A DNA stretch of 62,941 bases, counting the filler, from Rozella allomycis CSF55 (taxonomy: Eukaryota), in NCBI GenBank assembly GCA_000442015.1. It is 17 parts of 17 records of this genome, joined end to end, with 100 filler letters (N's around TTAATTAATTAA, not from the genome) between each part and the next. Parts side by side here need not be neighbours in the genome. Positions count along the whole stretch, not along the records: positions 10,916 to 21,778 come from KE560380.1; 16 more parts are not named here. One strand, given 5' to 3'. This document shows positions 10,716-62,357 of this stretch, piece by piece; positions within the stretch are counted from its first letter, which is position 1, and each line of letters opens with the position of its first letter. Position numbers and translations under genes: made by a program. The notes beneath the pieces are model-generated. The model was not told where the DNA came from and did no database searches. It worked only from the letters and a program-made list of their open reading frames with translations.

Positions 10716-10915
10716 AAAGTAGGTGGCTTGGAAATATGTTTTTTGACTTGAACGTTATTTGGGACCAAAAGCAAAGTATTATTGAAAAAAGAGGCATTTT
10801 AGAGAATCTATACAANNNNNNNNNNNNNNNNNNNNNNNNNNNNNNNNNNNNNNNNNNNNTTAATTAATTAANNNNNNNNNNNNNNNNNNNNNNNNNNNNN
10901 NNNNNNNNNNNNNNN

Positions 10916-11778
10916 CATGACTGAATTCTTTCGCTTTTTGGAATTTAACAGTCGTAGAGCTACATTCATCATTACAGTCTTAATTACTCATTGCAAACTA
11001 AATGGGTGTTTTCTGGCGAAAATGTACCAGTGTAAGTCGCACCCATCTCATTTATCATGAATTTTATTCGTTCTCTTGCCATTCCTGTGTAATTTGATAT
11101 AGAAATTATCAGCTTGTCCGCGTTTGGAATAATTTCGCCTCTCTTGGGATACATATGAATATGCATCTTTGGATCATGTTTAACACCATCTCTTAGAACA
11201 TCAAATATCCAAAAAGTGCTGACGACCGTTTTCCCACTTTGTAATGCCTTTCATGAAAATGATGTGTTAAAAATACCCTCTCGTAGTTAGTATCCAATCT
11301 AGAATCACATAAAACATGTGTGCTCGAATCAAAATCGTAAACAATTTGGCCTCCTTGACTTTCGATTGATTCTTGAACCACCCTTTTATCCTTGAAATTA
11401 TCCCAATGATTAGAAAACAAAAAACATCCTTTTAGTATATCCCTCTTTGGTGCCAATAGATTATTGTTAATTCCAGCTTAAATAACATCGATGAAAACTG
11501 TTTACAGGTAGGTTCAAAATTGTAGAAACTGGTATCTAACAGCATCTCCACACTGATAGAGTCTTCAATCCATCGAAAAGACACTACTTTGGCGTTTCTA
11601 TGTCTTTCCAAAGGATTCGTTGTGATTATATGGGTGGCATCCTCTTTCATCATAATCACACTTCCCTTTAGTGTCTTAACTTGTTCTTCCAACATCCTTC
11701 GCTTTATTTTATCCTTTATTATGTTGCTAATAATTGTACAATATCATCACAAAAGTAAAAATAACAATTCTCGAACAT
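10916..11778 (-). CDS. Multi-BRCT DNA-damage scaffold (Brc1/Rtt107/PTIP-like), N-terminal part, several micro-introns
   Basis: Three BRCT repeats: ATHIIT...RWIEDSI, GGQIV...STHVLC, ISISNYTGMARERIKFMINEMGATYT...NTHLVC. Confidence 0.82.
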
Positions 11779-12343
11779 TTTAGTTTCAACTATGCCACGG
11801 TTTGTACAGAGTTATTGCGTTCCGGATAGTATTATTGTTTAAAGTTTAAACCAAACTCTCATAACTCATTCCATTATATTCCCTGTCAACAGTGATTATG
11901 ACAATTTACACTAACGTCATTCAGAGAATGAAACACGGACACTTACAAATTACAATGAAGACATTAAATTGAAGAACTTGTTAATTAATGTTAAGTTAAG
12001 CATTAGAATCTAAGTATCTTTATAAGTAAATAAAGTTATTTCCAATTTGTGATTTGTCTCGAAATTTGGACTGTCAAGCTGGTTAAATATGAGCTATCAG
12101 CTATTGAGATTAAATCATTTATGCGGGAAATAAATGGTTGAAATTTAAAATAAGGGCTCAATAAGGCTTTGACGACCTTTTTGTGTTTTTAAAAAGATCG
12201 AAATGTAATTGTTAAATTGTATTATTCTTTCGGCTGTAATTTATCAACTCCAGTCGTGACAAAGAATTTCGAGGCTGAGTATTGCAATTAGCGAATTTGG
12301 CATGCGGCACGTGTACCTTTAATAATTTTCACAAAATTTTCAT

Positions 12344-13788
12344 ATGAGGTTCAAATTCTGTGCATTCATTTATTTTATCAGCGCATTTCTTTATATTTCA
12401 GCCTATAAATTCAATAGACAAGAAAAAAGAATTGTTGCAAAAGCTACTGCGAAAGCGGCGATGAAAGCAATTGCAGTCACTCCAGTAGCAACAGTAGCGT
12501 CAGCTGTAGCGACTATGTATCATCCTCTAGCTGCATTGGCTGAAGTTACTAAAAGAAATCAGACTCAAGCCAAATACCACATGACCCAAGCTGGACGCGC
12601 CTTCTTAGGAACACTAGCAAGTCCATTTCTGGTATTTTTGACACCTATTATTAAATATCACGAAACAACCAATCTAATTATCAATACTAATTATAGTTGT
12701 TCAGCTGTAGTAAACAGGAATAACCCATCTGAAATATTCAGCACTGGTTACGAAATATTTACTGCCTTGGACGCTCAATTTCTAAAGCAACTGCTATTAA
12801 AAGTTAAATTTGAAGGAGAAGCTAGCGCATTTCAAAAGGGCCCAGCCAACGAATTCTTTTTTCTTTTTGCGGCGACATTGCAAAATGAGCCTTTCGATTT
12901 GTTCGATTATGATAACAATAGATCTATTTTCAAAATCAAACCGGGGATAAAATCAGATGAAAGGATTAAAAGATTTAAAACTCTTGGAAAAATTCTTGGA
13001 TTCTATGCCTACAAAAAAATACCCATTGGAATGGCATTCCCGAATTCATTTTACAAAATTTTGCTTAACAAGTCATTATCAAAAAAGGACTACTCTAAAG
13101 ATGATCCAATCGCATACAATAATATGATGAAGCTGAAAAGTTGTTCAAATGAAGAGCTGGATGATATGTTTATATATTACCCGCCTCCAGATGATGAAAA
13201 AATGGTCAATCAAATCAATTTAGAAGACTATATCGAGTACCTATAATTTTTACCCTATATTTAGAAAGCAGTCTCTCTTTCAGATGTATGGATACGCCAA
13301 AGAAGAAATTGACGCGGTTGCTGCTGAATTTCAAAGATTCGTAAAGCCATCTATGTTTAAATCTCCTATAAAATTAAAAGTGAGTATAATTGATCTTTTT
13401 TACAGCTAGAAATTGTTAATCGGAGAGACGGATTTCCATTTAATCAAGGAAAGTCTAATCGGCAATGTCAAACTTTCGGACTATTCTCGCTCCGAATTGG
13501 TTATTTTGATGCTGTTCAAATATATACGACAATTAAGCGATAAATCTTTGAAGAAATTTTGGCGATTCATCTCCGGAAGCGAGTATTTCGCAGCGTCCAC
13601 AAAATTGACATGGTCGGTGAGCAAGGGTACATCAGATTTGGCGCTCCCATCAGTTTTTACATGGTAGCAAGCATAAATTATTAAAATGTAGTTTCAGGCA
13701 CGTAATCATGCCTCGGTATACAAATTATGAATCTCTGGCTACAAAATTTGATCAAGCAATTGAAGCAACAGACTTTGCACTAGCTTAA
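12344..13788 (+). CDS. HECT-domain E3 ubiquitin ligase with N-terminal signal peptide; exons 12344-13236, 13265-13379, 13410-13663, 13692-13788
   Basis: HECT motifs LKVKFEGE..GPANEFF, LGKILG, FYKILL, KLLIGE, FWRFISG, LPSVFTCF..MPRY, AIEATDFALA*; three GT-AG introns of 28, 30 and 28 nt keep the frame; hydrophobic N-terminus MRFKFCAFIYFISAFLYISA. Confidence 0.9.
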
Positions 13789-13920
13789 CCCAATGTATTA
13801 TACAAATAAATTATACCATTTGCAATAAATGTGAATTTTAAAATTAAATAATTATAATCACACTGAATATATTAATAGGAAGGAGGGGCAAAATAAAAAT
13901 TTTTTGTTTCTAGACGAAAA

Positions 13921-13994
13921 TGTTTTCATCCAGGTTCGAACTGGAGACCTTTCGCATGTAAAGCGAACGTGATAACCAACTACACCATGAAAAC
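13921..13994 (-). tRNA. tRNA-Val (anticodon TAC)
   Basis: Minus strand GTTTTCA...TGAAAAC(A) acceptor stem, anticodon arm TTCGC-TTTACAT-GCGAA, T-loop GTTCGAAC. Confidence 0.95.
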
Positions 13995-14209
13995 TTGAAA
14001 GCGGAAATTTGTATGTTTTTATATTTAATATCAAATCTTACCAGTCCTTGTTTTGACTAAAATTTTTAAATTGAAAAAAATAGAAATGATCAATAAATGA
14101 ATTAATCAATTTTTCATTTATTGAACTAAAATTTCTTTTGTNATAATCACACTGAATATATTAATAGGAAGGAGGGGCAAAATAAAAATTTTTTGTTTCT
14201 AGACGAAAA

Positions 14210-14283
14210 TGTTTTCATCCAGGTTCGAACTGGAGACCTTTCGCATGTAAAGCGAACGTGATAACCAACTACACCATGAAAAC
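14210..14283 (-). tRNA. tRNA-Val (TAC), second copy (haplotype overlap duplicate)
   Basis: Identical sequence inside the block duplicated across N 14142. Confidence 0.9.
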
Positions 14284-14406
14284 TTGAAAGAAGAAATTTG
14301 TATGTCTTTATATTTAATATCAATCTTACCAGTCCTTGTTTTGACTAAAATTCTTTAAATTGAAAAAAATAAAAATGATTAATAAATGAATTAATCAAGT
14401 TTTCAT

Positions 14407-15878
14407 TTATTGAACTAAAATTTCTTTTGTCTCGGTCTCTGCAAGAGCAACGATTTCAGAGATCCTTTCTCTCCATTGTGATATGCTGTTCTTCACACTG
14501 CCGATTTGTTCTCTATTCAATACACGTGGTTGAACCCAATTGATATTTACGACTTGATTCACTTGGTCGATTGATCCCTTGATGATATTTAGCGAAAGAG
14601 CCTTCATAACAAGAAATTCAATCTTTTCCGTAAAAATATATTAAATTACTTCATTTTCAGGAATTTTTGTTTCTTGCGAAATGACTGCAAATGGAATAGA
14701 TCTCCCTTGCCCNTGCCTTCATAACAAGAAATTCAATCTTTTCCATAAACATGCATTAAATTACTTCATTTTCAGGTATTTTTGTTTCTTGCGAAATGAC
14801 TGCAAATGGAATAGATCTCCCTTGCCCTTGTCTCTTGAAAGCACACTCGATCAACGCCATCAAGGAAATCTTTTGTTTCAGAAAACCAGCTTGTTGGTTC
14901 AATAAAGTATGGTTAGCAAAGACACTGCTTTGCTGTTCAAACTTTTGCAAGTCACCGCAATTAAAGGCAAAGAGCGCATGCCTAATCCATTCATTAGGTC
15001 CACTAAGAGCTTCTAAAATTGGATGAAGAAGCTATCAAGCCACACTAATATATTTACCAGTTCCCCAAAGTTATAGATTTTATCCGACAAGAGCGCTGCA
15101 AGTCCCAGATCCACGGCCCTCTGAACCTTTTCATTAAGCTCCATTTTATCAACATCAACACACGCAAGATAAAGCAGGGCATTCTTGTAGTATCCAGTGT
15201 AATTGGCTTTAATCTATAATCACCTCATAAACCTGCTACTTTTTCAAAATCCGTTACGACTCTATAAAAGGTCGCTTGCAAGAAAGGCTCGACAAACATC
15301 ATTTTATCAATAATTTTGTTGCACTCTTCAATAACTGTTTCAGTAAACTCGACATCGCCTTGCAGCAGTTTGTAGTTTGCAGCCTCGAGTCTAGCAACTA
15401 CAAGTGCTTCTTGGCAGTCAACGACTTTGTTAGCAACACTGGTCATAAATTCAAAGGCTTGATTTGCATCTATAAAGGCAGTGGAGCTAGTTTACCTTTT
15501 AATTGTTTGGAAACAGCATGCGCTATTTTGACGAGTGACAGCTGGTTGATTTCCTTTTCAAAGTCTGCAATAAAATTTGAGTAAATTGGTTGCAAGAAGC
15601 GAGCGGATTCTTTGTGGTGTACAAAGTCTTCGAGTTCAACAGTGAGCTGATGCCATAGTCTGGTGTGTTAAAGGGGATATAGTTANCTGCAAGAAGCGAG
15701 CGGATTCTTTATGATGGACAAAGTCTTCAAGCTCAACAGTGAGCTGATGCCATAGTCTGGTGTGTTAAAGGGGATATAGTTACTTTTTATCGTAGAGAGT
15801 AATAAAACTGTCGATTTTTGGCTGAAGTTGTGGAGGAACTTGAGGTCTAAGAGTATTGAGAAAGGCGACTGCTGACAT
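14407..15878 (-). CDS. RPN9: 26S proteasome lid subunit Rpn9/PSMD13 (multi-exon)
   Basis: LWHQLT, IYNFGEL, LKQKISLMALIE, MKALSLNIIKGSIDQV..INWVQPRVL PCI motifs. Confidence 0.93.
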
Positions 15879-16297
15879 TGGAAAATTCAGGAAATGCAAG
15901 CTGGTAAAAAGAAAGCAATCAATTAATGTACAAATGATTTATAAGAAGTTAGTTAAAAATTTAAATGAATATTCAATCATAAATTCATAAAATAAATAAA
16001 AGTTTATTATTTTTTGTTGATTGATTGAAGAATACCACTTCCACATCTATCAATGTCCATAATGATACCATGGTAGTTTGGCTCAGTCAGCCACTTTTGA
16101 GAATCATCGTCGAATCCGATAGCATTTACAGGATAAGGCAATGACTGCTTTACTTTTTTGCCTTGTTTAGAGTCGAAAGATAATTTTGGTTTCTTTAGNT
16201 TGAATAAATGAAATTGATAATGTACGAATAATTTATAAGAAGTTAGTCAAAAATTTAAATGAATATTCAATCATAAACTCATAAAATAAATAAAAGT

Positions 16298-19200
16298 TTA
16301 TTGTTTTTTATGGATTGATTGAAGAATACCACTTCCACATCTAGCAATGTCCATAATGATACCATGGTAGTTTGGCTCAGTTAACCACTTTTGAGAATCA
16401 TCGTCGAAGCCGATAGCATTTACAGGATAAGGCAATGACTGTTTTACTTTTTTGCCTTGTTTAGAGTCGAAAGATAATTTTGGTTTCTTTAGTATTTGGA
16501 TGTTGGGAGTATCTTTGAACAGAGAGCGTTTAAAGATAATTCCGATGTGAGTGCCGCCAAATGGATTATGAAAGACTAAAACTTGATCATGAAACTTTTC
16601 CTANCGTTTCTTTGAACAGAGAGCGTTTAAAGATGATTCCGATGTGTGTACCGCCAAATGGATTATGAAAGACTAAAACTTGATCATGAAACTTTTCCTA
16701 GTATAATGTTGATGGACGAATACTTACTCTGATTGAAGCGACATACTTTGCAGCTGGATCAAAATCAATCCATAGATGGTCTAATCCTTTTGGATCTTTC
16801 TTGTGAATGAATTCAATTTGAGAAGATTCTTCGGAATGAATCAAATTTTCTTTACAAAGTGGCTTAGTGTGACGTTCAGCGACCCTTGTACAATTTAACT
16901 CATTTAAAGTTAAATAACAATCGAATTCAGACAAATTAGGAGTGAAAATGGAACTGTATTTTTCTGGAGAATTGAAATTGATGCAAAGTTTAAGCGTGTT
17001 TGAACAAATCATTTTGAATCNTTCATTTAAAGTTAAATAACAATCGAATTCAGACAAATTTGGAGTGAAAATGGAACTGTATTTTTCTGGAGTATTGAAA
17101 TTGATGCAAAGTTTAAGCGTGTTTGAACAAATCATTTTGAATCTCTTCCACAGCATTGCCTGATCGTTTGAATCAATGAATGAAATTGCGTTATCTGAAT
17201 TTTTGGTCTTTTGAATTAAACTTTCGAAATCTAGTGAAGAAATTAATTCCAAGAATCTAAAAAATCCATTTGATTGTCCACGTGGAACAGAATGATCAGA
17301 AANTATTAAACTTTCGAAATCCAATGAAGAAATTAATTCCAGGAATCTAAAAAATCCATTTGATTGTCCACGTGGAACAGAATGATTAGAAAAGAGAGAA
17401 GCCACAAGAAAGTCAATAATGTCTTCTGTTGAATCAAAGAGCATTTTAAGTTTNCAGAAAAGAGAGAAGCTACAAGAAAGTCAATAATGTCTTCTGTTGA
17501 ATCAAATAACATTTTAAGTTTTGGTGTTTCAGATTTAATGATTGAATTGAAAGAAATCAGAAAATGAGCTGAACAAAATCGTTTAACGATCATCATTGTG
17601 TCTCTGAAAGCAGATGGATATTTTGAATAAGAATTTTTACACAAATCATTCAATTTAATTCTTTTAAAGAAAAATGAATTTTCAAAATTTCCAAAATTAA
17701 AACATTTTTCAAGATCTAGTGGCTTGTCATCTAATTTAGTGAATGGAGGAGCAATGAAGAATCTAAAAATATAACCATCTTTTTCAATATCCAAAAATCC
17801 ATTTTCATTTAAACTTGATTTTTCAAATCTTTTAGAAATTTCACCCAACAAGGCAATTTTCATAATGTGAATTGCGTGATCATCTTCTGGCCATCTTCCA
17901 CTGAATTCAAAAACAATCATCGCTTCTTGAACAGGAATAAATGGATTTTCTAAATTAAAATGAGATCCCATCTTCTTCAAATATTCAATCGTTGGCATAA
18001 ATGGTAAATGATAAGAATATCTCAATGATGATGAAAGCCCATAAATTGTATTAATACACAAAGGAAGTTTCTTCATCTCTTTCAATGTTCTACAAAGTTC
18101 ATCAAATGAAACAATTAAAGATTTTTCATTCAATTTTAATGGATTTGGAAATTTCATTAAATTGAAGTGGCTTAGATTAGTTAGATCTTTAATTTCATTT
18201 TTATTCAAAATGTGATCTATAATTTCTTTAATTGGATCATTTGAAAACAAAACACATTCTCTTATAGATCCATCAGCCAATCTTCTTAATTCAGCCTTTT
18301 CTCCCCAAAATTCTCTAAACTCTTTCGCTTCTTCAACTTGATCAGCAATAGGCCCAATCTCTATTATTTTATTCGCATTCTCTGAAAATTTCATCTTTAT
18401 TTTACAATCACCAGAAACAAAAATATTCTCACATCTTTCCTTCAACCCTTGTCTCAAAACATTTTCCAATTCATTTCTTTCATGAACACTCATTTCTTCT
18501 TTCTTTCCTTGAATCAAATAAATTCCATCAAAGTATGAAATTTCATTAATTTGTTTCAAGAAGAGAAAATTAAAACATTTCAAATCNCCTTTCCTTGAAT
18601 CAAATAAATTCCATCAAAATAAGAAATTTCATTAATTTGTTTCAAGAAGAGAAAATTAAAACATTTCAAATCATCTTCACCATCTAAAACATTCAAAGAC
18701 ACTTTAGCCTTTTCTTTAACAGTTTTCCAAAACCCATTAGACTCAAATCCAAACAAATTAAACAATCCAGTTGGATCCAAAAGAACAAAATCATCAAACT
18801 TTAAAAACATTTCATTCTTAAAATTATCCATCACCTTCTCTGAAACAATAAAATTCTCGCAAATCGTATAAACTCTATTCTCCAAGCCACCAAGGAACGT
18901 AAGAAACATTCTAAACATTTGATAACTACTCATATTCACACTCATATCCTTCTCTTTAATTAAAAATGCAAATATCATTGAAACTATAAATGTATTCATC
19001 TCAACACCCTGCTTTCTAGACCACACCTTTGCTAGGTTAATTCCATTCTTCAATTCGCTATTTATTCCAATTTCACTCAAATAATGCAAATGAAACAACA
19101 TCATCATATCCTTCAATATCATTTGATTATAAAACGGCGTTGGCTCCAACTCACTCGCAGTATCCCTTTCAACATTTTTATCAAGCAACCACGGTCTAAC

Positions 19201-19807
19201 ACAATTTTTCATAGGGCCAAGTTTATTTATAGGAAACACACTCGAATCAATAATCCCAAACAATCTCACAGTATATTTAAACTTTGTCTCTATTTTCACA
19301 AAAGGAGTCCATTTATCTGCAACAAACGACACAACAACATTCTCATCAAATTTACTTAACATTCTTTCAATTCCTTTCAAGAAACAATACTTCTTTTTAA
19401 AATACCTATAGTTCAAATGATCCTTCTCGCCAAACATCTCCTTGGGCATCTCTACTCCCAAATCCACATTCAAATTTGGTCTAGGAAGCGTCTTCAAAAT
19501 ATAACTTCCAACCACATGAACAGCACTAGGCTTCACACCTTCAAACTCACCAAACCCTTCCTCCTTGGGATACACACCGTCATCTACACAAATCTACTAA
19601 AATAAAATGATTATAATCTACCTTTTCGTCAGTTTGGTTGGCCAACAAGTATTTATGCAGCTTTTTCAAAAAAGTGTCAAGCTCCTTGGTCTTGGTTTCT
19701 CTGAACGATATATTTGACAGACATTCATTCATCTGCATACGAAATAAATTCGACTTGTACAAAGTTTCTGCTTCGTGGAAAGAAGCGATCTCTTCTTTGG
19801 TTTTCAT
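16298..19807 (-). CDS. UTP22: Nrap/Utp22 (NOL6) U3 snoRNP-associated nucleolar protein; true start may lie further upstream; haplotype duplicates at 16007-16198 and 20050-20460
   Basis: LYKSNLFRMQM, VVGSY..NVDLGVEMP..EKDHLNYRY, TPFYN, FREFWGEKAELRRLADGSIRE, FEFSGRWPEDD; 28-nt intron 19594-19621. Confidence 0.93.
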
Positions 19808-20585
19808 TTTTCTTCTTTTGACAGGGGTTCGGAAATTCTGGGTTTGCTTGGAGCTAGCAAGAAACGATACAAGAAAGAAATAAGATTTCTATAGGGTTAT
19901 TACAGGTATTTGAGTGTTGCTAATACTGTCTTTGCGGTATTAGAATGCCGTTTTGAATGTGCGTGGACCGGGGTTAAGCCACACAAAACTGCACATGACA
20001 ATCCCTCAAATCAATTCAATGGCGTTCGCGGGATTTGCAAAACCAGGTNCACTCCCAAATCCACATTCAAATCTGGCTTCGAAAGCGTCTTCAAAATATA
20101 ACTCCCAACCACATGAACAGCTCTAGGCTTCACACCTTCAAACTCGCCAAACCCTTCCTCCTCGGGATACACTCCGTCATCTACACAAATCTACTAATAT
20201 AAAATGATTATAATCTACCTTTTCGTCAGTTTGGTTGGCCAACAAGTATTTATGCAGCTTTTTCAAAAAAGTGTCAAGCTCCTTGGTCTTGGTTTCTCTG
20301 AACGATATATTTGACAGACATTCATTCATCTGCATACGAAATAAATTCGACTTGTACAAAGTTTCTGCTTCGTGGAAAGAAGCGATCTCTTCTTTGGTTT
20401 TCATTTTTCTTCTTTTGACAGGGGTTCGGAAATTCTGGGTTTGCTTGGAGCTAGCAAGAAACGATACAAGAAAGAAATAAGATTTTCTATAGGGTTTATG
20501 CAAGAATTTGGGTATTGGTAATACTGGCTTTGCGGTATAACAATGCCGTTTTGAATGTGCGGGGTTAAGCCACACAAAACTGCAC

Positions 20586-21778
20586 ATGACAATTCCTCAA
20601 ATCAATTCGATAGCGTTCGCGGGATTCGCTAAACCAGGTGGCTCCAAAACAAGGCATGTGATTATCAAAGTATTCAGCAACGGTGATCAATGGCAAATCA
20701 TACGTCCAATCAACGAGTTTTACAAGTACATTCTTGGTCTTGGCCCCGGTATTATTGACTCGCCGATTATTGAAGTTTTATCAAGTCTTGAGCTGGATAG
20801 CAACAAATCTGCATTGGTACTTAATCAGCATCGACAATTGATACAAGATATCCTGCAATGTGTCCTCGATGCATTAAATAACGATGGAGAGCCTGCTATT
20901 CCTTTGGATTTCTTCATGGCTAATGAATTGGATCAAAAATCGATTTTNATGCAATGTGTCCTCGATGCATTAAATATCAATAGTGCACCTGAAATTCCTT
21001 TGGATTTCTTCATGGCTAATGAATTGGATCAAAAATCGATTTTCATTGACCAAGAGAACAATTCCGTGCCCGTTGACGTTTCAGTGAAACGAACATTCTC
21101 AATTGATCTCCACGACAACATAGCTGAAAATTTAGAAAGAAATTTAAGCTATGGCAGCAATGAAGAAGCGGTAAAAAGACTTGAAAAGAAGAGGCAACTA
21201 GTTGAAGGTCTAAGGAAGCAGCAGATTCANTCACGACGGCATTGCTGAAAGTTTGGAAAGAAATGTAAGCTATGGCAGCAATGAAGAAGCGGTAAAAAGA
21301 CTTGAAAAGAAGAGGCAACTAGTTGAAGGTCTAAGGAAGCAGCAGATTCATACGTCATTTAGAGACGAAAATAATTTATCCAGATTGGTGAGGAGAGCGA
21401 GCTCTACAAAAGTTCATCATTCAAACTCTAGGGAGTTTGAGTACGCCGTGATAGAAAATAAGACTATTACACAAGCTCTTGAATGCGTCAATATTAATGA
21501 ACAGGTTGTTAGCATAGAATCTTTGGTTCCAGTTGATCTGACAATGACTGATTTGGTTAAAATCAAATATATGGATGAAAATGTAGTTACCAGGATTCCA
21601 CAGGATTTCCAGCTGTTCATTAATAAAATTAAGCGCAAATTTTCAGTTGGAAAAGAAAAGACATTATCTTTGACGTTTCTGGATGAAGATGGCGATGAAA
21701 TTCAAATCACTTCAATGGAGGACGTGAAAATTGCTAAGACGATCAAACAAACATCAAAATTAATAATCAAAGCATCCT
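20586..21778 (+). CDS. PB1-domain protein with a possible N-terminal PX-like domain (Bem1-like scaffold lacking SH3); contains N-joined duplications
   Basis: C-terminal VKIKY...LTFLDEDGDEIQITSMEDV (PB1 lysine plus OPCA motif); N-terminal VIIKV..WQIIRPINEF resembles PX. Confidence 0.65.
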
Positions 21779-21883
21779 NNNNNNNNNNNNNNNNNNNNNN
21801 NNNNNNNNNNNNNNNNNNNNNNTTAATTAATTAANNNNNNNNNNNNNNNNNNNNNNNNNNNNNNNNNNNNNNNNNNNNAGATT

Positions 21884-21917
21884 ATTCTAGAATTTTCGGA
21901 ATTCCGAACTATAAATA
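21884..21917 (+). promoter_or_regulatory. Heat-shock element (TTCtaGAAttTTC) plus TATA box (TATAAATA, 21910-21917) upstream of HSP104
   Basis: Three correctly phased alternating nGAAn units at 21884-21898, 44-58 nt upstream of the ATG. Confidence 0.75.
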
Positions 21918-21941
21918 CGGGATCAGATTGAAGCCCCCAAA

Positions 21942-24596
21942 ATGGCATTTGACTATAACAATTTAACAGAAAGAACACAAAAAGCGTTACAAAGGGCAAT
22001 ATCAATTTGCCAAGAAAACTCGAATATCCAGTTGCATCCCGTGCATTTGCTGATGGCGTTGTTTGAGGACAGGGACGGATTAGCTCGCCAGTTGATTCAA
22101 AAGTTTAATTCCAATATGACTGTAGTGAACCGAGTAATGCAGGCGCATCTGACGAAGCTTCCGAGACAGACTCCGGCGCCGTCGCCGTCGTTTTCGCATG
22201 CGCTAGTGTCTGTGTTTAACAAGGCGACTAGTATTCAAAAGGAGAATGGGGATTCGCATGTTGCTGTTGATACGTTGTTGCTGGCGTTGTTGGATAACAA
22301 GGATGTTGCGGCTATGTTGCAGGAGGCGTCATTGCATAGGCACCAGTTGATTACGGCGATTCAGGAGATGAGGAAGGATAAGAAAGTTACTGGAAGCAAT
22401 GCTGAGGAGACGTTTGAGGCATTGTCAAAGTATGCACATGATCTTGTTACTATGGCTTTGAGTGGAAAGTTGGATCCTGTGATTGGAAGAGATGATGAAA
22501 TACGAAGAGTGATTAGAGTGCTTGCAAGGAGGACAAAGAACAATCCTGTTTTGATTGGACCGCCTGGTGTTGGGAAGACAGCTATAGTTGAAGGACTTGC
22601 GCAGAGAATCGCTAGAGGAGATGTACCTGAATCATTAAAGTGTCAATTATTTTCGCTTGACATGGGAGCGCTTGTTGCTGGAGCTAAATACAGGGGTGAG
22701 TTTGAGGAAAGGTTGAAGGGTGTATTAAAGGAAGTACAAGATTCCAATGGCAGAATTATATTGTTTATTGATGAGATTCATTTAGTCTTAGGAGCTGGAA
22801 AGGCTGAAGGTGCGATGGATGCTGCGAATTTGTTGAAACCATTGCTTGCGCGAGGAGAGTTGAGGTGTATTGGAGCGACTACATTGGAAGAGTATAGGAA
22901 ACATGTTGAAAAAGATGCAGCGTTTGAAAGAAGATTTCAGCCTATTTATGTTGGAGAGCCATCGTTGGAAGATGCTGTGAGTATTTTGCGTGGATTGAAG
23001 GAGAGATATGAGACGCATCATGGAGTTAAAATTGCAGATGCTGCGATTGTATTGGCTGCACAGTTGGCTAATCGATATATTACTAATAGATTCTTGCCTG
23101 ATAAAGCTATTGATTTGATTGATGAAGCGTGTGCTAATACACGAGTAGCTTTGGACAGTCAACCTGAGATTATTGATTCTTTACAAAGGAGAAAATTGCA
23201 ATTGGAAGTTGAAGCGACTGCCCTGGAAAGAGAAAAGGATGCAGTGAGTCAGCAAAGATTGTTAAAGGTTAAAGAAGAAATGACAAAGATTGAAGAAGAT
23301 TTGAAACCGTTGAGAGAAAGATATTCAAGAGAAAAGAATCGAATAGTTGAAGTTCAAGAATTAAATAAAAAGTTGGATGAATTGAAAGTAAAGTTGGAAG
23401 ATGCAAAGAGAAGATATGATTTAGCATTGGCAGCTGATATTCAATACGGTGCAATTCCAGATGTTGAAAAGAGAATTCAACATTTGAAAGAGATTAATCA
23501 AAGCCAAGAAGAAGAAGAAATGGATAGCAATCGTTTAGTTAGTGAAGATGTTGGTGTTGATGAAATAATGGAAGTTGTTTCTAGATGGACCGGCATTCCA
23601 TTAACAAAGTTGAATCAGAGCCAAGCCAATAGATTGTTGCATTTAGCTGATCGATTGAAAGAAAGAGTTGTTGGTCAAAATGAAGCTGTTAATGTTGTTT
23701 CTGAGGCTGTGATTAGATCTAGATCTGGGCTTAGCAGACCTAATCAGCCACTAGGTAGCTTTCTATTTTTAGGTCCAAGTGGAGTTGGAAAAACAGAATT
23801 AGCAAAAGCTTTAGCTTATGAATTGTTTGATGATGATAAACATGTGATTAGAATTGATATGTCTGAATACATGGAAAAACATTCAGTCTCTAGATTGATT
23901 GGAGCTGCACCCGGATATGTTGGATATGAAGAAGGTGGCCAGTTAACTGAAGCCGTGAGAAGACGTCCTTACAATGTTGTTTTGTTTGATGAAGTTGAAA
24001 AAGCTCACGTTGATGTTTTGAATGTTTTATTGCAAGTTCTGGATGATGGAAGATTAACTGATGGCCAGGGTAGAACTGTTGACTTTTCAAATACAATTAT
24101 CGTTCTAACGTCAAATCTTGGTTCTCAATTCCTTCAAACAGATTTCAATGGTTCTGTTCCTCAAATGGTTAAAGATCAAGTCTTATCTGAAGTTAGAAGA
24201 CACTTCCGACCAGAGTTTCTTAATAGGCTAGACGATATTGCAATATTCAATCCACTGTCAGAAACCGACTTGTTTAGCATTGTTCATCTCCAAATGAAAC
24301 AAATCGCTACCAGATTACAAGACAGAGAAATAACAGTCACATTAGATGATTCTGCTGTTCAACTAGTTCTCCAAGAAGCCTACAATCCTGTTTATGGTGC
24401 ACGACCTCTAAGACGTTATCTGGAAAAGACAATTGTTACTGCACTTTCTAAAATGATATTGGATCCTGTTGCACCTCTAAAGAATGGTTCTAGTGTAACT
24501 GTGTACCATGCTGGGTTGGCACCTACAAATGCAAAAGTATATAATGATTTGGCATTCGTTATTCATGAAAAAGATCAAGTTGAAATGGACATTTAA
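21942..24596 (+). CDS. HSP104: Cytosolic Hsp104/ClpB AAA+ disaggregase, intronless
   Basis: Clp-N domain, NBD1 [15 protein letters not shown], middle coiled coil, NBD2 [21 protein letters not shown]; no mitochondrial presequence; acidic C-terminus. Confidence 0.97.
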
Positions 24597-37367: not shown

Positions 37368-40300
37368 ATGGCGATTACCAGTCCATATCTGGATATCAGA
37401 GTATTAAAAAATGAAGCAACTACTCATATCGGAGCTTTGCAATATTTCCCTGATCGAGAGATTGTGTATATGCCAGTTGATGGAAGCAAGGGAATGTCAA
37501 TCAAAATAGATACGGAGCGACTAGACTTTGGCAAAATCAAGCAAGGATATAATATTTCTGTAATGTCTGCGTTTCTTGGGTAAGTATTAAATGGATTTTT
37601 GATTGGTAGATGCCTGGAAGTAGATGAGGGTGAAAGGCAAGAGAAATTTTTATTGCTAATGTAGGAAGAAAGCGAGAATGGAGTTTGTTGAAATGTTAAA
37701 GGAAAGCGATATTCGCTTAAGTGAGCTTTGTGTGTTGGGGATATCTGATTTGCGATGTCATGATTTGAATACTCAAAATTCGATAACAAAGTTTGAAGGA
37801 TTTGAAGAGTTTATAGAAGATGCATTTTATGTGGTTGAATCATGTGAAGAGATAGAAAATGTTTTAAAGAAAGGTAAATTGTATGGAAATATTTTGTGTA
37901 GATTATTCATTACCTATGGCAGTGTTGATTAGAGTTACAAGTTTAAATAATGGAGTACCTGTCACTGGAATGATAACTTTTGTAAGAATTGTTATTGTGA
38001 ATTTATTGAGATTGAGTGTGGATTGATGATGTTTGATGAAAAGAGTGNTTAGATTTTGACAAACTCAAGCAAGGATATAATATTTCTGTAATGTCTGCGT
38101 TTCTTGGGTAAGTATTAAATGGATTTTTGATTGGTAGATGCCTGGAAGTAGATGAGGTTGAAAGGCAAGAGAAATTTCTATTGTTAATGTAGAAAGAAAG
38201 CGAGAATGGAGTTTGTTGATATGATAAAGGAAAGTGATATTCGTTTAAGTGAGCTTTGTGTGTTGGGGATATCTGATTTGCGATGTCATGATTTGAATAC
38301 GCAAAATTCGATAACAAAGTTTGAAAGATTTGAAGAGTTTATTGAAGATGCATTTTATATGGTTGAATCATGTGAAGAGATAGAAAATGTTTTAAAGAAA
38401 GGTAAATTGNGTGAAAGGCAAGAGAAATTTTTATTGCTAATGTAGGAAGAAAGCGAGAATGGAGTTTGTTGAAATGTTAAAGGAAAGCGATATTCGCTTA
38501 AGTGAGCTTTGTGTGTTGGGGATATCTGATTTGCGATGTCATGATTTGAATACTCAAAATTCGATAACAAAGTTTGAAGGATTTGAAGAGTTTATAGAAG
38601 ATGCATTTTATGTGGTTGAATCATGTGAAGAGATAGAAAATGTTTTAAAGAAAGGTAAATTGTATGGAAATAATTTGTGTAGATTATTCATTACCTATGG
38701 CAGTGTTGATAAGGGTTACAAGTTTAAATAATGGAGTGCCTGTTACTGGAATGATAACTTTTGTAAGGGTTGTTATTTGAATTTATTGAGATTGAGTGTG
38801 GATTGATGATGTTTGATGAAAAGAGTGTATTGCCATTATCACAATCATTTAAAGAATTGAGTGAAAGCCTTTTAGTGTATCAACAGCCGAATATGCCAAG
38901 ATTGATGGAAGTTCCAAATAATCCATTTTGCTTTATATTTTCAAATTTTGTTTCCAAATCATTTTTTAAATTTCAATCTTTTATTCCAGAGAAGATTGAA
39001 ATAAAATCTCAAATAAATTCAATTCAATTTTTGGAAGATTTGAAGAGAATAAAATTTTATGCAGAAAAAAATAAACCAGAAAAATATTTTCTTGAAGCAC
39101 AAAAGGTGCCAGAGATTGAAAATGAATTGAAAAAAATTACGCGAGAGAAGAGTGAAATTGAAGAAATTTTGAAATCTAAAGAAAAAAGATTAAAAAGAAT
39201 TGAAAAAGATAGCGAACAAGTAAAAAATAAAAGAAATAAAAATAGATTCATTTTTCTTTAACCAGGGAGTGCCTATTGTTGGAATGTAAGAAGAGTGATT
39301 TACAAATTGAGATTGAAAAGATGAAATTTGATCAGCATTTGAATGAATTGGAAAATGAAAGAAGAGAAAACAAAATTTATAATCTAAAATTAAATGAAAG
39401 AAAAAGAAATCAAAAATTAAAAGAAATTTTTGTAGATCAAAAGAAGATCGTGGCTGAGAAACAGAATTTATTTTTAAAAGCAGAAAATGAAATTCAAAAT
39501 TTGAAAAACAGAAATTTAAATTTGAATAAAACGATTGAAGAGAAAGAAGAAGAATTTAAAAGTTTGAAAGAAATGTCAAAGGAAGAAGAAGAGAAGAGAA
39601 TTGAAGAGATTGAAAGTTTGAAGAATGAATTAAAGGAAAGTGAAAATGAAATAAAAAGAAAAGATTTAGAATTGAAAAAAGAAAAAGAAATAAAATTAAA
39701 ATTTGAAGAAGATTTAAAAAAGATTAAAAAAGAAATTAAAGAAAAAGATCTGGAAATTTCAGAAATAATAAAAGAAAAAGAAAAAATTTTGCAAGAAAAA
39801 GATTTAGAAATTTCTTCAATTAAAAAATCAAAATTTGAATTTGAAAAGAAATTTAAAGAAGCTCAATCAATGCATGAAATTTCATTAAAAGAAACAGAAT
39901 TTGAAACTGAACTTGAAATTAAAAAAGCTAAAAAAGATTTTGAATTGAAATTAAAAATATTAAAAGAAAAATTTGAAGAAGAATTTGAAAAACAAAAAGA
40001 GAAATTGGAAGAAGAAGCAGCTGAAAAAGAACGAAGAAAATTAAAAAGAATTTTTGAAAAAGAAAAAATTCAATTGAAAAATGAACTTTTAGAAAGTCAA
40101 AAAGAAATTCTTTCGTTGCAACAAAACAAGATTAGAAAAAGTTTAACAATCTTGAAATCTGTGGCTGAGGAATCTAATCTGGTGGCTGATGAAGATCAAG
40201 AAGAGATTCAAGAAAAGAAGAATGTTAAAGAACAGAGAAATCTTAAAGAAAAAGTTCAAGAAAAGAAGATTGTAAAAGAAAAGGTTCAAGAACAGAGAAA

Positions 40301-41473
40301 TCTTAAAGAAAATAATAAACTAAAAGCATCACCAAAAGAAAGTATAAAAGAAAATGTCTCTTTAGATAACGAAAAGGTCTCCTTGGATGAAGAATCGATA
40401 ATCCAACCAAAAGGGGTGACGAAAAAGAAACCCCAAAAAGTAATTCAAGATTCAGATTCTGAAGAGAAACAAAACAAGAAAAATGTTGTAAAGCAACCCG
40501 CTAGAAGAAAACGATCTCCAAAAGCGGCTATTGAAGAAGAGGTAAATGAAGAAAAGGTTAAAGAAACTCTCATGGAAACGAAGATTGAANTCAACCAAAA
40601 GTGGTTACGAAAAAGAAAACCCAAAAAGTGATTCAAGATTCAGATTCTGAAGAGAAACCAAAAGAGAAAATTGTTGTAAAGCAACCTGCTAGAAGAAAAA
40701 GATCTCCAAAAGCGGCTAATGTAGAAAAGGTAAATGAAGAAAAGGCTAAAGAAACTCTCATGGAAACGAAGATTGATGAAAGCCCCAAATTAAATGAGAC
40801 ACCAAGCCCGAAAGAAAATATAAACGAAGAGATTAAAGAAACAAAAGAAAAACCAAAAGCGAGAAGAAAAAGAGTGACAAAGAAAAGTTCTCAAGAAAGT
40901 TTAGAAATTCCATTAGATGAACAAGATGAACAAGAAACCAAGCCCAAACCACGTAGTAGACCTAAGAAAAAAGATGAACAAAAAGAAAATAATCTGGTTG
41001 AAAATATTGACATTCAACACAGCCCAATACCAATCAAGAAAAGATCTTCATTTTTGGATTCTGACGCTGAAGAGCCTCCATCTAAAAAGCAGTAATTTTT
41101 ATCATTGATTATTAATAGAAAAACTCCATACGTTCGCACTTCACTTCATCCTTCACTGTTCATAACACCCACTGAACAGCCAAAGAAACCAGAGCCTAGT
41201 CAGCCAAATGTCAAGTCTTCACGGCCATCGCTATTTGCGCCTTCTTCAATACGACCTACTTTCAATCTATCTAATCAATCTGCTGTGAATCCAGAGTCTA
41301 GAAAAATCAGACTGCCTGTTTTAGCAAAGAAATCTTCAGTAATTTCATACAATAAACTTTAATAGCTCAACATTCCAACATCATTAAGTAGTCAACCAAG
41401 TCAGTCTCATGTAAACAAGGATACTTTCCAAAAGGTTCTCAACTCTTTTTCAAGGCCGCCTCTTTCACAATAA
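37368..41473 (+). CDS. Multi-exon long coiled-coil (Glu/Lys-rich) protein with a disordered basic C-terminus; N-terminal exons repeated as haplotype fragments
   Basis: Chain of ORFs 37368-41362 linked by short GT-AG introns; heptad EK-rich segment 39276-40200; last exon ends at TAA 41473. Confidence 0.7.
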
Positions 41474-48516: not shown

Positions 48517-50098
48517 AAAGCTTTTTGATAGTCCGTTTCTATATATTCCCCTTTGCAATACAAGTGCGCCATTTTAACAAGAGCCTTGGGATAGTTTTTC
48601 CCAGCTGCTTCCTCGTAATATTCTACCATCATATGAGAATCTTTCGTGACGCCAAGGCCAGCTTCGTACATCGTGCCCAGATTGAAAACTGCGTCAATAC
48701 AGCCAAGCGACGCGGCAATGTGAAATTTGTTCATCGCTTCTTTAAACAATTTCTATGCATATGATTGCAACAAATTACTTCCATTAAATATAAATAGCCA
48801 AGATTATTTGTAGCACTGGCGTGGTTATTGGATGCTGCCTTTTGATAATATTGCTTTGCTTGCAAAAAGTCTTTTACAACACCTTTGCCCTCCTCGTAGC
48901 ATATCCCAAGGTTGTTTTGAGCATTGGAGTTTCCCTGAATATATATTTTGAACATTCTTACTTGCTCTGCTGCCTTTAAAAACCACGTTACAGCCTTGCT
49001 GCAATCAAGTTCTACTCCGAGACCCCTATAGTACAAATTTCCAAGAGCATTTTGAGCTCTAGAGTAACCCTGCTCCGCTGCTAATTTGTACCATTCAGCT
49101 GCCTTTTCAAAATCCCGTGCTTGTCCGATTCCCATTTCATATAAACGCCCTACATATTGTAGTCTAGCGAATATTACCCAAGTTCGTCTGTGCATCAGGA
49201 TGATTTCTTTCCGCGGCTTGAATGTACCATTCAGTAGCTTTGGCTAAATCCAATTGTACTCCCTTNTTACTGAATATTACCCAAGTTCGTCTGCGCATCA
49301 GGATGATTTCTTTCTGCTGCTTGAATGTACCATTCAGTAGCTTTGGCTAAATCCAATTGTACTCCCTTCCCGGTTTCATACAGCCGACCCAAATGATTAC
49401 ATGCATCAGCATGACCTTTATTACCAGCCTCGCGGTACCAATATATAGCACTTGGTAGGTCAGGTTCCCGCCCAAGTCCATTTTCAAACATTGTGGCTAC
49501 CATATTTGCTGCCTCAGAATAACCAAACTTCGCAGCGGCCTATACACTATCATCAAATTGCTTTGGGTACCAAATATCTTTTGAAAGCAGTTTCATAAGA
49601 TTGCTTCACTCCATAGCCGAACAAAAATTTATCCCCTTGAACACAAAATTGCTCTGCTTGGCTTTGGTCCAAAACTACTTCAATGTAGTTGTGTAAAGTT
49701 ACTTTCCCAATCAGGATGCCCAGCAGCTAATGCAATTTTCGCAATATTGCCAGACGCAATTTTGGCTTGCTTGGATGAATTATCAGCCATTTCCAGAGTA
49801 ACATTCACAAGCAATTCGTTCCAGGCTGATTGGACGTCGTTAAAAAGGTATTCAATTCTCTTTCTATCTTTAAAAAGGGTCATTAATGTAGATGTTCTCT
49901 TCCACCTTTGACTCAAAACCGAGGTTCGTTACTTTGCTAACTTTTCATCTAGAGTTATTAAAGATTCCTGAAATTCTTTCAGCGCTTTTAATATCATATC
50001 AGACTGAATGTCTGTAAATATTTCATGTTTTCGTTGCATGAATGATTCCTTTTAATCGAAAAAGGTAAGTGTACTTTAATCTGCCTAAGCTTTTTGAA
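48517..50098 (-). CDS. Sel1-like repeat protein (partial, multi-exon)
   Basis: At least 7 repeats of type A..LG.LY..G.GV..D..KA..WY..AA..G. Confidence 0.92.
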
Positions 50099-61282: not shown

Positions 61283-62357
61283 AGCTAAACAAAATTCGGA
61301 ATGTGATTTGGATACTATTCCATTGGCCTCTTGTCACGCTGACGGTTTTATTAGGTTTTGGGACACCGAACAGGGCTTGCTTCTGCATGAAGTAACTTAT
61401 TTGATCTCCATATTATTAGTTCAGATGTGAATCACTATACGATATGACCTTGACTTGCATGTATTATTGCAATCACACGTCCATATTAGCCATTGGCGAT
61501 TCTGTTGGTTTCATCAGGCTTATAAGTATCAAAGGCATGATCACAAGTCCAGGAATTGATTATCAATCAATAGTAAAAGAAATTGCGTGTTGGAGAGCGC
61601 ACTGCGAATTTATCACCCAGTAAAATATATCTATTAATTATCTTGCAGAGTTTCAAGCGTATTGTCTAATGGAAATCATTTCGTATTGACAGCCTCTAAA
61701 GACCATTCAATAAGGTTGTGGACTGGCACCGGCGATTTTGTAGGAACATTCGGACAAGATCAAACATGGAATCTACAGATCCCAGAAACTTATGAGCCGC
61801 TACCGCATGATGTCGCTATGGAAATGGAGCGAGATAAAGAAAGGAAAGCTGATAAAATCCGTGAATTGAACGAGAGCAAAATGACAGCAACAATAAATAT
61901 GTGGTCGAAAAGTAGCATAAAATATCCAATTTGATATTAGTGAGTCCTGTTAAAGAAGAAAACTTTTCCTCAAAAAGTCTGGAAAGAAAATTGTCAACCA
62001 AAATCGCTATGAAGAAAGGACAAGGTAATTTTAATTCAATGTAGAAAACGAAGACAAAGAACCCGATATGGATTGGAATGTACAACCTGATCTACTCATA
62101 AAGACTGGAGCCAAGGTAGAGATTAATTTTTGTGTTATCAGGCCTTCTTTTCATATGACGCTACAAATATATCTCGTACAAAGAAGAAGATATCGATTTC
62201 AAGATCAGAATCCGCTTATCATAATCTAAAATATCATAATTTAGAATCAGTTAATGCACCCGTCAAGACTAGTTCATCAACTTTACCAACCGCTGCTAGC
62301 GTCAAGACGTTGGAGTCAAAACCATTATATTCCTCTAAAACTTTCAATAAAATATAA
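61283..62357 (+). CDS. WD40 protein C-terminus (WDR49/WDR64/WDR95-like, cilia-associated family)
   Basis: CWRAH, LTASKDHSIRLWTGTGDFVGTFGQDQTW. Confidence 0.65.

Follow-up and report, generated by a model that had tools for sequence, protein, structure and literature searches.

HECT catalysis requires cytosolic E1, E2 and ubiquitin, and in the case of the bacterial Cys-dependent E3 effectors SopA and NleL, which are type III-delivered, the host supplies all three. We know of no eukaryotic HECT protein with a predicted signal peptide that is demonstrably secreted, and none was found in the literature searched either. In the oomycete Pythium ultimum, 16 of 56 HECT proteins carry predicted signal peptides and 10 of the 56 signal anchors, and these proteins have been proposed as secreted candidate effectors (PMC2926784). 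The set represents an expansion of a subfamily called orthologous to plant UPL1/UPL2, and secretion is given there as a prediction only (PMC2926784). The protein described here resembles the Pythium set in being a HECT protein of a eukaryotic pathogen with a signal-like N-terminus; however, theirs are of the UPL1/UPL2 type and belong to an extracellular/necrotrophic pathogen, whereas ours is a minimal HECT protein of an intracellular fungal parasite. A different arrangement has been described for PfUT of Plasmodium falciparum, a HECT protein of 3893 aa at the parasite's own ER/Golgi that has an armadillo-like substrate region and is embedded in the membrane by four putative transmembrane domains (PMC4022464). 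With PfUT our protein shares the combination of a parasite HECT domain and predicted membrane segments; PfUT has four of these, our minimal protein just one, at its N-terminus.

Rozella allomycis is a wall-less intracellular parasite of another fungus and the closest sequenced free-branching relative of the microsporidia, to which the Cryptomycota are the sister lineage; the first-pass annotation of the DNA studied here was right to start from an intracellular parasite. To our knowledge, almost nothing is known of host manipulation by Rozella. It recruits the mitochondria of its host (PMC10953367), and a survey of HECT proteins lists six from Rozella, one of them divergent and possibly HUL4-related (Marin 2018, PMC5913265). 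The literature searched on R. allomycis held no description of the HECT gene at 12344-13788, of any HECT protein in a Rozella secretome, or of Rozella intron lengths. Here, we analysed this gene of strain CSF55, whose 452-aa product would be a minimal ubiquitin ligase of the HECT type, specific to this lineage, with predicted catalysis; from its features we infer topology, activity and substrates.

A four-exon gene with very short introns

The gene consists of four exons separated by three GT-AG introns of 28, 30 and 28 nt, and this structure is established (Table 1; positions refer to the window, by which we mean the whole 62,941-nucleotide stretch of DNA that was analysed, filler included). 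Its ATG at 12344 is the first after an in-frame stop at 12323-12325, and the spliced CDS of 1359 nt encodes 452 aa plus the stop codon, with no internal stops. The model with three short introns proposed in the first-pass annotation is thereby borne out, both by the uninterrupted 452-aa frame and by the best HMM score, and the spliced CDS confirmed that the Cys codon, split TG/T, is cut by the third intron. The pair of AATAAA motifs 3' of the stop codon is likely to be the 3' end signal of the gene, as read from the sequence.

Table 1. Features of the HECT gene and its surroundings in window coordinates
Feature	Position	Strand	Description
Exon 1	12344..13236	+	codons 1-297 and the first 2 bases of 298; encodes the hydrophobic N-terminus, the extension (basic, Ala-rich) and most of the HECT N-lobe
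Hydrophobic segment, signal-peptide-like or anchor-like	12344..12403	+	codons 1-20; from sequence, hydropathy and charge counts
Candidate 69-nt in-frame intron	12349-12417	+	removes codons 2-24, as in EPZ37008.1
Lineage-specific N-terminal extension	12404..12679	+	codons 21-112; basic, Ala-rich
HECT domain	12680..13770	+	residues 113-447, broken by three introns; own HMM and Pfam pieces
Intron 1	13237..13264	+	28 nt, GT..AG, phase 2
Exon 2	13265..13379	+	all 8 listed differences from the second gene version at third codon positions in the exon 2 frame
Intron 2	13380..13409	+	30 nt, GT..AG, phase 0
Exon 3	13410..13663	+	HECT C-lobe through first two bases of catalytic Cys codon
Intron 3	13664..13691	+	28 nt, GT..AG; interrupts Cys421 codon TG/T
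Exon 4	13692..13788	+	third base of Cys421 codon, C-terminal 31 residues including Phe at -4; stop TAA 13786-13788
Two AATAAA motifs	13805-13810, 13824-13829	+	read from sequence, shortly 3' of the stop codon

Splicings were compared by their score against our own HECT HMM of 386 positions, which was built from 76 HECT relatives chosen on His or Ser two residues before the catalytic Cys. The chosen splicing scores 167 bits as one HECT domain and outscores five alternatives. The 64-nt intron 1 of the public models reaches 156 bits against 167 and breaks the HECT match into two domains, and the 28-nt splice retains a conserved HECT motif ahead of exon 2; retention of intron 1 gives a lower score or stops. 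Use of an alternative acceptor, which shortens intron 2 to 26 nt, introduces stops and yields only 108 bits, and with intron 3 retained the score drops to 135 bits and the match stops at HMM position 328. Three public models of the gene exist (EPZ37008.1, EPZ35824.1 and RKP18680.1), all of them truncated and without the C-lobe. One set of metatranscriptome contigs (X10) placed nothing on this stretch, a result that carries no information about expression.

Across the window, ORF-joining GTR..YAG candidates peak at lengths of 26-29 nt, a scan that superseded an initial one for plain GT..AG with 60-codon flanks, which was too noisy. Two seeming introns in an Nrap gene proved to be places where the assembly had been joined at single N's, and they were dropped as intron evidence. 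When the flanks of five other short-intron candidates were searched with Pfam, only a Sel1 gene was clearly supported, with a weak hint for WD40.

The gene exists in at least two versions, which differ in a mosaic pattern with differences in dense patches. The second version was found in DNA runs, and 24 of the 35 listed exon differences fall at third codon positions (P 2e-5). Of the 32 codons that changed, 19 still encode the same amino acid; a premature stop is absent, and the variation is mostly synonymous in the C-lobe exon too. Third-position bias, synonymous changes and the lack of a premature stop together imply a protein in use, and this pattern of differences indicates purifying selection on the gene, which has kept its catalytic Cys.

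A complete and divergent HECT domain

On the spliced protein, our HMM finds one domain of 167 bits at residues 113-447, spanning HMM positions 32-380 of 386. PF00632 (profile length 306) was the only Pfam family found on the exon pieces, matched by exon 1 at profile positions 3-112 (E 1e-12), by exon 3 at positions 187-273 (E 1.6e-4) and by exon 4 at positions 275-303 (E 0.15); C2, WW and RCC1 were absent from these results. The domain can thus be called complete and free of those modules, as had been claimed. Searched against PDB sequences, exon 1 matches ITCH, NEDD4 and E6AP best (E 2e-11 to 6e-11), and exon 3 alone gave 0 matches. The AF2 model of exon 1 reaches a pLDDT of ~90 from residue 111 on and aligns to the N-lobes of NEDD4, Rsp5 and E6AP with a Foldseek probability of 1.00. 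All of the best 60 of the 64 PDB matches to exon 1 are eukaryotic HECT proteins, and SopA and NleL are absent among these 60. The analogy to these two effectors drawn in the first-pass annotation consequently stands for the proposed mechanism and not for family membership: the likeness lies in the proposed logic alone, with no sequence relationship.

The fold is accompanied by an established catalytic Cys. Cys421, in a Thr-Cys-Phe context ~30 residues before the C-terminus, aligns with the catalytic Cys that is invariant in 76/76 reference HECTs, and exon 4 supplies a Phe at -4 from the C-terminus, so that the hidden active site described in the first reading is present with both residues. Also retained around it are the Thr before the Cys, a Leu-Pro in the loop and a later Pro-x-Tyr. 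The qualifier "divergent" is equally well founded. With 17 residues, the E2-binding hairpin region is shorter than in any of the 76 references (minimum 20, median 31), and several near-invariant residues are replaced. The N-lobe carries a Gly-x-Asp-x-Gly-Gly motif that is conserved but separate from the catalytic centre; here its Asp (73/76 references) is Phe, the Gly after that Asp (73/76) is Lys, and the Arg/Lys before the Glu (72/76) is Asn, with the second Gly and the Glu retained. In the C-lobe, the Asn after Cys-Phe (65/76) is Arg, and the position two before the Cys is Phe, not His (70/76 references, a figure partly by construction because the references were selected on His or Ser there). 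The earlier description of the domain as "catalytically intact" therefore applies to Cys421 and the -4 Phe and does not extend to the other near-invariant positions or to the short hairpin. Compared with the eukaryotic HECT proteins NEDD4/ITCH/Rsp5 and E6AP, the Rozella protein has the same bilobed domain, Thr-Cys-Phe active site and -4 Phe, but differs from them in its length of only 452 aa, the lack of C2, WW, RCC1 or any other substrate module, a hydrophobic N-terminus with a unique basic extension, and the short hairpin and replaced residues.

The nearest relative is a paralog in R. allomycis itself, EPZ33819.1 / RKP20394.1 (P0157 / P0006), detected by sequence similarity (E 4e-26) and 34-35% identical over the N-lobe. 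The homology begins at residue 91 of the 452-aa protein, which matches the first residue annotated for the paralog; that model lacks a hydrophobic N-terminal extension and leaves out the segment with the catalytic Cys, probably through mis-splicing. The hairpin region of the paralog is as short (15 residues), yet its N-lobe motif is canonical where that of the 452-aa protein is not, from which it follows that the hairpin deletion is old and tolerated. After the paralog, the next matches drop to E 1e-11 and no orthologue was found beyond Rozella: the nearest non-Rozella matches form a long-branch scatter, and the 8 named clusters, out of 16 examined from outside Rozella, are scattered taxonomically. 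One unrelated metagenome protein of 450 aa (P0008) likewise has a full HECT domain together with a signal-like N-terminus.

The N-terminus and the topology of the protein

The hydrophobic N-terminus noticed in the first-pass annotation is real and forms a 20-residue stretch at the start of exon 1. Positive residues occupy positions 2 and 4 and are followed by 17 uncharged residues (5-21); the segment ends Ile-Ser-Ala, which puts Ile at -3 and Ala at -1 relative to residue 21 and satisfies the -3/-1 rule for signal peptidase. Its Kyte-Doolittle mean over a 19-residue window is a moderate 1.57, and no polar or helix-breaking c-region precedes the putative cleavage site; the hydropathy and charge arguments used here are rules of thumb. 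The 15 residues that follow carry a net charge of +4, and residues 22-112 contain 12 K+R against 3 D+E, with 15 Ala in residues 22-80. By the positive-inside rule such a basic flank tends to remain cytosolic, and juxtamembrane regions in the cytosol typically show this pattern. Two more hydropathy peaks, of 1.57 at residues 38-56 and 1.62 at 86-104, are marginal, with Pro, Thr and Ser among their residues. AF2 places a helix at residues 2-22 with a pLDDT of 53-66 and models the extension, including both peak regions, as helices at low confidence, and residues 1-112 have no look-alike in the ESM Atlas. Four N-glycosylation sequons (N72, N116, N192, N242) and free cysteines are also present. The label "signal peptide" from the first reading agrees with the -3/-1 rule and with an n/h/c layout; however, the uncharged span of 17 residues, the missing polar c-region and the +4 flank suit an anchor just as well, and to judge from the residues alone the segment would fit a cleaved signal peptide approximately as well as an uncleaved anchor, a borderline case.

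We tentatively prefer an uncleaved anchor with the HECT domain in the parasite's own cytosol, and consider it at least as likely as a secreted enzyme of the host cytoplasm. The first 20 residues, which open a 110-residue extension peculiar to this protein, would act as an uncleaved N-terminal anchor in the ER, endomembranes, plasma membrane or mitochondrial outer membrane, the basic stretch and the HECT domain would face the parasite's own cytosol, where E1, E2 and ubiquitin are present, and ubiquitin would pass from E2 to Cys421 and then onto proteins at the anchoring membrane. Since HECT chemistry requires these cytosolic partners, the parasite's own cytosol is the default compartment. The charge of the flank and extension agrees with this orientation by the positive-inside rule, the only moderate hydrophobicity and the lack of a c-region argue in the same direction, and PfUT offers a precedent for a membrane-embedded HECT protein at the ER/Golgi (PMC4022464). 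Against an anchor, two positive charges within the first four residues disfavour translocation of the N-terminus and are typical of signal peptides, the 17 uncharged residues fall below the length of most anchors and end as the -3/-1 rule prescribes, and the two later hydrophobic peaks are marginal; the absence of a substrate module, the restriction to Rozella, the high divergence and the several versions moreover make up a profile common among effectors. These last points are taken up by a host-directed secreted or surface ligase, which is possible and in our judgement less probable than the anchor: an ER signal, either cleaved or serving as a type II anchor, would lead to translocation of the HECT domain, which would be released from the parasite or stand on its surface and use host E1, E2 and ubiquitin to modify host proteins. 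A fuller version, with export via a classical signal sequence to the host cell surface or interior, action with host E2s and versions diversifying by gene conversion, we regard as doubtful. Host direction is suggested by the n/h/c layout (positives at 2 and 4, a 14-17-residue core, small -1/-3 residues, length 20), by the presence of 17 residues without a charged or strongly polar one at the first ATG, which is unlikely to be accidental, and by a gene that is Rozella-specific, divergent and without substrate modules, occurs in at least two mosaic versions, and is held under purifying selection with its catalytic Cys. The annotated model of the 35%-identical paralog has no such N-terminus, and the metagenome protein P0008 shows the same pairing of signal-like N-terminus and full HECT domain. 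Rozella also lives within the cells of its host, whose cytoplasm it engulfs and whose mitochondria it recruits (PMC10953367), and the 16 of 56 Pythium ultimum HECT proteins with predicted signal peptides set a precedent (PMC2926784), which makes the idea less novel than the first-pass annotation suggested. Conversely, a strongly basic flank directly after the putative cleavage site is atypical of a translocated mature N-terminus, a polar or helix-breaking c-region is missing, the four sequons and free cysteines would face the secretory pathway, and the short hairpin and replaced residues leave activity with any E2 putative. At the Rozella-Allomyces interface, as Powell, Letcher and James reportedly described in 2017, a host cisterna lies beyond the parasite membrane, so that secretion alone need not bring a protein into the host cytosol, which counts against host direction.

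Two further readings are improbable. The protein could be a soluble cytosolic minimal HECT, through a late Met start (residue 40, 58 or 80) or because codons 2-24 are spliced out. In two public models (P0155 and the partial P0005) the protein indeed starts after the hydrophobic segment, the annotated start of the paralog is the equivalent of residue 91, and the 69-nt stretch concerned has GT..AG ends and can be removed without affecting the HECT score (167.6 vs 167.2 bits). Those public models, however, mis-splice intron 1 and miss exons 3-4, and are therefore no evidence on transcript structure; the model of the second version (P0156) treats the hydrophobic segment as coding sequence, and the 69-nt candidate begins GTT, lies far from the 26-29-nt intron peak, and is in frame and stop-free, as coding sequence would be. 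Removal of the N-terminus in this way is thus unlikely as judged by intron statistics, although the HMM score does not reject it. There is a similarly small chance that the domain is a pseudo-ligase, a degenerate non-catalytic scaffold whose fold and Cys were kept by descent, which would be compatible with any topology. The replacements of Asp by Phe, Gly by Lys, Arg/Lys by Asn and Asn by Arg at near-invariant positions, the Phe two before the Cys (with the reference figure there partly by construction) and the hairpin below the reference minimum would all fit such a scaffold. The retention of the catalytic Cys, the preceding Thr, the loop Leu-Pro, the Pro-x-Tyr and the -4 Phe speaks against it, as do the mostly synonymous version differences, the C-lobe exon included, and a paralog that keeps the canonical N-lobe motif with an equally short hairpin region.

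Meaning for Rozella and for HECT ligases

The corrected 452-aa model points to a complete, selected and minimal HECT ligase in Rozella, with activity predicted from its sequence. Introns of 26-30 nt are easily missed in the Rozella genome, and such omissions probably affect many other Rozella gene models. With its export or anchor signal, this HECT ligase makes a concrete candidate either for a host-directed ligase or for a quality-control/trafficking ligase of the parasite's membranes. If export were true, the Cryptomycota would gain a first known effector, and eukaryotes a first true-HECT effector demonstrated to be secreted, a eukaryote-made counterpart of the bacterial HECT-like effectors. 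Either outcome would inform how HECT domains function when substrate modules are missing and the E2-binding hairpin is shortened.

Structure and support of the HECT gene

The HECT gene at 12344-13788 starts at the first ATG downstream of an in-frame stop (12323-12325), and its four exons join into a coding sequence of 1359 nt that specifies 452 residues with no internal stops. The three introns are 28, 30 and 28 nt long, each of the form GT..AG, and the codon of the catalytic Cys421 is split between exons 3 and 4; in all of this, the coordinates, exons, introns and split codon given in the first-pass annotation match exactly. Two AATAAA motifs lie 3' of the stop codon, the opposite strand carries no ORF of more than 70 codons at the gene, and no N letters occur in 10916-14141, the span that contains it. 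A further 36-nt GT..AG stretch (12313-12348), which begins just ahead of the start codon and runs across it, shares its first six bases with intron 1 and has an atypical acceptor (GAG); paired with the ATG at 12302, this stretch might in principle define an alternative first mini-exon that retains the hydrophobic N-terminus.

Coordinates of features in the window
Feature	Coordinates	Strand	Detail
HECT gene, exon 1	12344-13236	+	
HECT gene, exon 2	13265-13379	+	
HECT gene, exon 3	13410-13663	+	last bases TG
HECT gene, exon 4	13692-13788	+	first base T
Difference patch, second version	12703-12721		5 in 19 nt
Difference patch, second version	13069-13132		8 in 64 nt
Difference patch, second version	13462-13542		14 in 81 nt
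Candidate ultra-short intron	39220-39245	+	
Candidate ultra-short intron	41092-41118	+	
Candidate ultra-short intron	61620-61648	+	
Candidate ultra-short intron	48753-48778	-	
Candidate ultra-short intron	50532-50558	-	
Candidate ultra-short intron	19594-19621	-	
Neighbour gene	10987-11743	-	
Neighbour gene	14410-15031	-	
Neighbour gene	16698-19888	-	
Neighbour gene	21915-24596	+	
Neighbour gene	48519-49243	-	
tRNA-Val(TAC)	13921-13994		
tRNA-Val(TAC)	14210-14283		
Single-N overlap site	14142		
Single-N overlap site	18587		near-repeat of ~85 nt
Single-N overlap site	17454		
Single-N overlap site	14713		
Spacer (example)	10816-10915		
Spacer (example)	21779-21878		

The gene model is right by four independent lines of evidence, namely HECT continuity, selection, intron class and fold. 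The Pfam HECT profile is matched at 3-112 by exon 1 (E 1e-12), at 187-273 by exon 3 (E 1.6e-4) and at 275-303 by exon 4 (E 0.15); the unmatched position 274 corresponds to the split Cys codon. An HMM trained on the C-terminal 400 residues of 76 HECT relatives (at least 400 aa, with His/Ser-Thr-Cys near the C-terminus) finds one domain in the spliced protein (167 bits, HMM 32-380 of 386, residues 113-447). Other splicings were rejected: a 64-nt intron 1 lowers the score to 156 bits and splits the domain in two, and a 26-nt intron 2, retention of intron 3 and retention of intron 1 give 108, 135 and 105 bits, respectively. Selection is seen against a second version of the gene, a variant in contigs of public DNA runs (X1, X2 and X5): among the 38 differences listed in 12703-13542, with 20 others unlisted, 35 are exonic, and 24 of these 35 fall at third codon positions (P 2e-5), as do all 8 listed in exon 2. 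The frame stays open, and 19 of the 32 codons changed by the listed differences are synonymous.

Across the whole window, 30 GTR..YAG candidates that connect a pair of open frames, each 35 codons or longer, are 26-29 nt long, compared with 9.5 on average for the other 4-nt bins (P 9e-8); three control motif pairs in the same scan gave no length peak. One 26-nt intron (48753-48778) connects two Sel1-repeat exons. Judged from these sequence patterns, introns of such extreme shortness apparently make up a class in this genome, and further candidates are tabulated. For the fold, AlphaFold2 models exon 1 with pLDDT ~90 from residue 111 on, Foldseek matches this model to the N-lobes of NEDD4, Rsp5, E6AP and HUWE1 (probability 1.00), and a PDB sequence search recovered ITCH, NEDD4 and E6AP (E 2e-11 to 6e-11).

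The window chains separate contigs by 16 spacers (each 44 N + TTAATTAATTAA + 44 N), and neighbourhood is therefore meaningful only inside a block, here 10916-21778 (10,863 nt). The neighbours, named here in table order, look ordinary: a BRCT-repeat gene is divergent to the HECT gene, PCI-domain and Nrap/UTP22-like genes share its block, and a ClpB/Hsp104-type AAA gene and the Sel1-repeat gene lie in others. Some single N's are unmerged overlapping contig ends, with an exact 25-mer repeated across the N at 4 of 54. Such joins created the apparent tandem duplication of tRNA-Val(TAC) around one of these sites, as well as spurious interruptions of the reading frame of the Nrap/UTP22-like gene.

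Public models, versions and relatives

Exon 1 shares 96-97% identity with 'hypothetical protein ROZALSC1DRAFT_29656, partial [Rozella allomycis CSF55]', whose 90% cluster includes EPZ37008.1 (310 aa) and EPZ35824.1 (300 aa) from the same strain. All three public models are incomplete. In EPZ37008.1, codons 2-24 are treated as a 69-nt 'intron' and intron 1 is taken as 64 nt, after which the model reads into intron 2 and ends; the partial RKP18680.1 has the same 64-nt intron and also reads into intron 2; EPZ35824.1 represents exon 1 of the second version and ends within intron 1. Hence no public protein record examined contains the catalytic lobe, and since these models used 64- and 69-nt introns, other Rozella models may be wrong too.

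Over 12117-13853 the second version is a mosaic with dense patches of differences, and RKP18680.1, a single-cell model, holds a third combination of variants. On sequence grounds, such a pattern points to gene conversion between copies, or to alleles.

Searched exhaustively with HMMER, 1.84 billion representatives yielded 298 proteins at E <= 0.001 and just five at E <= 1e-10: the cluster of the gene itself, a single Rozella paralog (RKP20394.1/EPZ33819.1, P0006/P0157; E 4e-26, 35% identity) and three others near E 1e-11. Eight of the 16 non-Rozella clusters examined were named (Salpingoeca, Spironucleus, Entamoeba, Trichomonas, Tritrichomonas, a Hamiltosporidium cluster comprising two species, and a pseudoscorpion). 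From this profile of relatives, the gene and its paralog are a fast-evolving, Rozella-specific pair of short HECTs. As annotated, the paralog begins at a position that aligns to residue 91 of the 452-aa protein, and its annotated model omits the catalytic-Cys segment. Marin 2018 (PMC5913265) counts six HECTs in Rozella, one 'highly divergent' and possibly HUL4-related.

Catalysis and topology

The first-pass annotation called the HECT domain catalytically intact. The core signature is in keeping with this: Leu-Pro ahead of the catalytic loop, Thr-Cys-Phe and Pro-x-Tyr after the loop are conserved, Cys421 aligns to Cys in 76/76 references, and a Phe stands at -4 from the C-terminus. Even so, the domain departs from the norm. 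In the E2-binding subdomain, the hairpin stretch is 17 residues long (median 31, minimum 20 in the references); it is likewise short in the paralog (15), so the deletion is older than the split of the two Rozella genes. Near-invariant residues also differ: in the N-lobe motif Gly-x-Asp-x-Gly-Gly, Asp is replaced by Phe and the next Gly by Lys, the Arg/Lys ahead of Glu by Asn, and the Asn following Cys-Phe by Arg; at Cys -2 His is replaced by Phe, at a position whose conservation is biased because the references were chosen on His/Ser there. An intact catalytic domain is plausible and supported by purifying selection, and a non-catalytic domain, combinable with any topology, is improbable.

Residues 1-20 form a hydrophobic segment that is certainly membrane-seeking, with positive residues at 2 and 4, an uncharged span at 5-21 and a Kyte-Doolittle mean of 1.57 (19-residue window). 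Pro, Thr and Ser occur in the further peaks at 38-56 (1.57) and 86-104 (1.62), which are marginal. AlphaFold2 places five helices in the N-terminal 110 residues (pLDDT 32-66), residues 22-80 include 15 Ala, and the ESM Atlas gave no look-alike of this region. The second version shows zero differences over 12259-12702 (codons 1-119 plus 85 nt upstream), where ~20 were expected from the downstream density (P 2e-9), and the region is therefore uninformative on selection for a signal.

HECT chemistry requires E1, E2 and ubiquitin, and the domain must therefore reach either the cytosol of the parasite itself or the host side. We favour, at somewhat below even probability, an N-terminal anchor that would leave the HECT domain facing the parasite's own cytosol. 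The segment has a basic flank (net charge +4 over the next 15 residues; 12 Lys+Arg against 3 Asp+Glu in residues 22-112), and basic stretches are placed in the cytosol by the positive-inside rule; together with moderate hydrophobicity and the lack of a polar or helix-breaking c-region, these are features of N-terminal anchors with a cytosol-facing catalytic domain. PfUT of Plasmodium falciparum, with four putative transmembrane domains and located in the ER/Golgi (PMC4022464), offers a loose precedent.

Export into the host, as the first-pass annotation proposed, is possible though doubtful. Against it, in Rozella a host cisterna lies outside the parasite membrane, and we know of no eukaryotic HECT demonstrated as secreted. 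The segment is nevertheless short and N-terminally positive as in signal peptides, it obeys the -3/-1 rule (Ile at -3, Ala at -1 relative to residue 21), the gene profile is effector-like, and Rozella lives inside host cells, engulfing their cytoplasm and recruiting their mitochondria (PMC10953367). A protein that lacks the hydrophobic segment, through a later start or the 69-nt splice of EPZ37008.1, is quite improbable.

A minimal HECT architecture in Cryptomycota

Candidate effectors that combine a signal peptide with a HECT domain have already been published for Pythium ultimum, with predicted signal peptides in 16 of 56 HECTs and signal anchors in 10 of 56 (PMC2926784). An unrelated 450-aa metagenome protein on a 1540-nt contig (P0008) has a signal-like N-terminus and a canonical NEDD4-type HECT; Pfam finds HECT alone (full canonical, E 7e-76), with a WW-like stretch seen by eye, and it is an independent putative case of this layout. 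New here are a full-length, corrected model for a Rozella gene that had been mis-annotated, a minimal architecture with a shortened E2-binding hairpin, and the occurrence of such a HECT in Cryptomycota.
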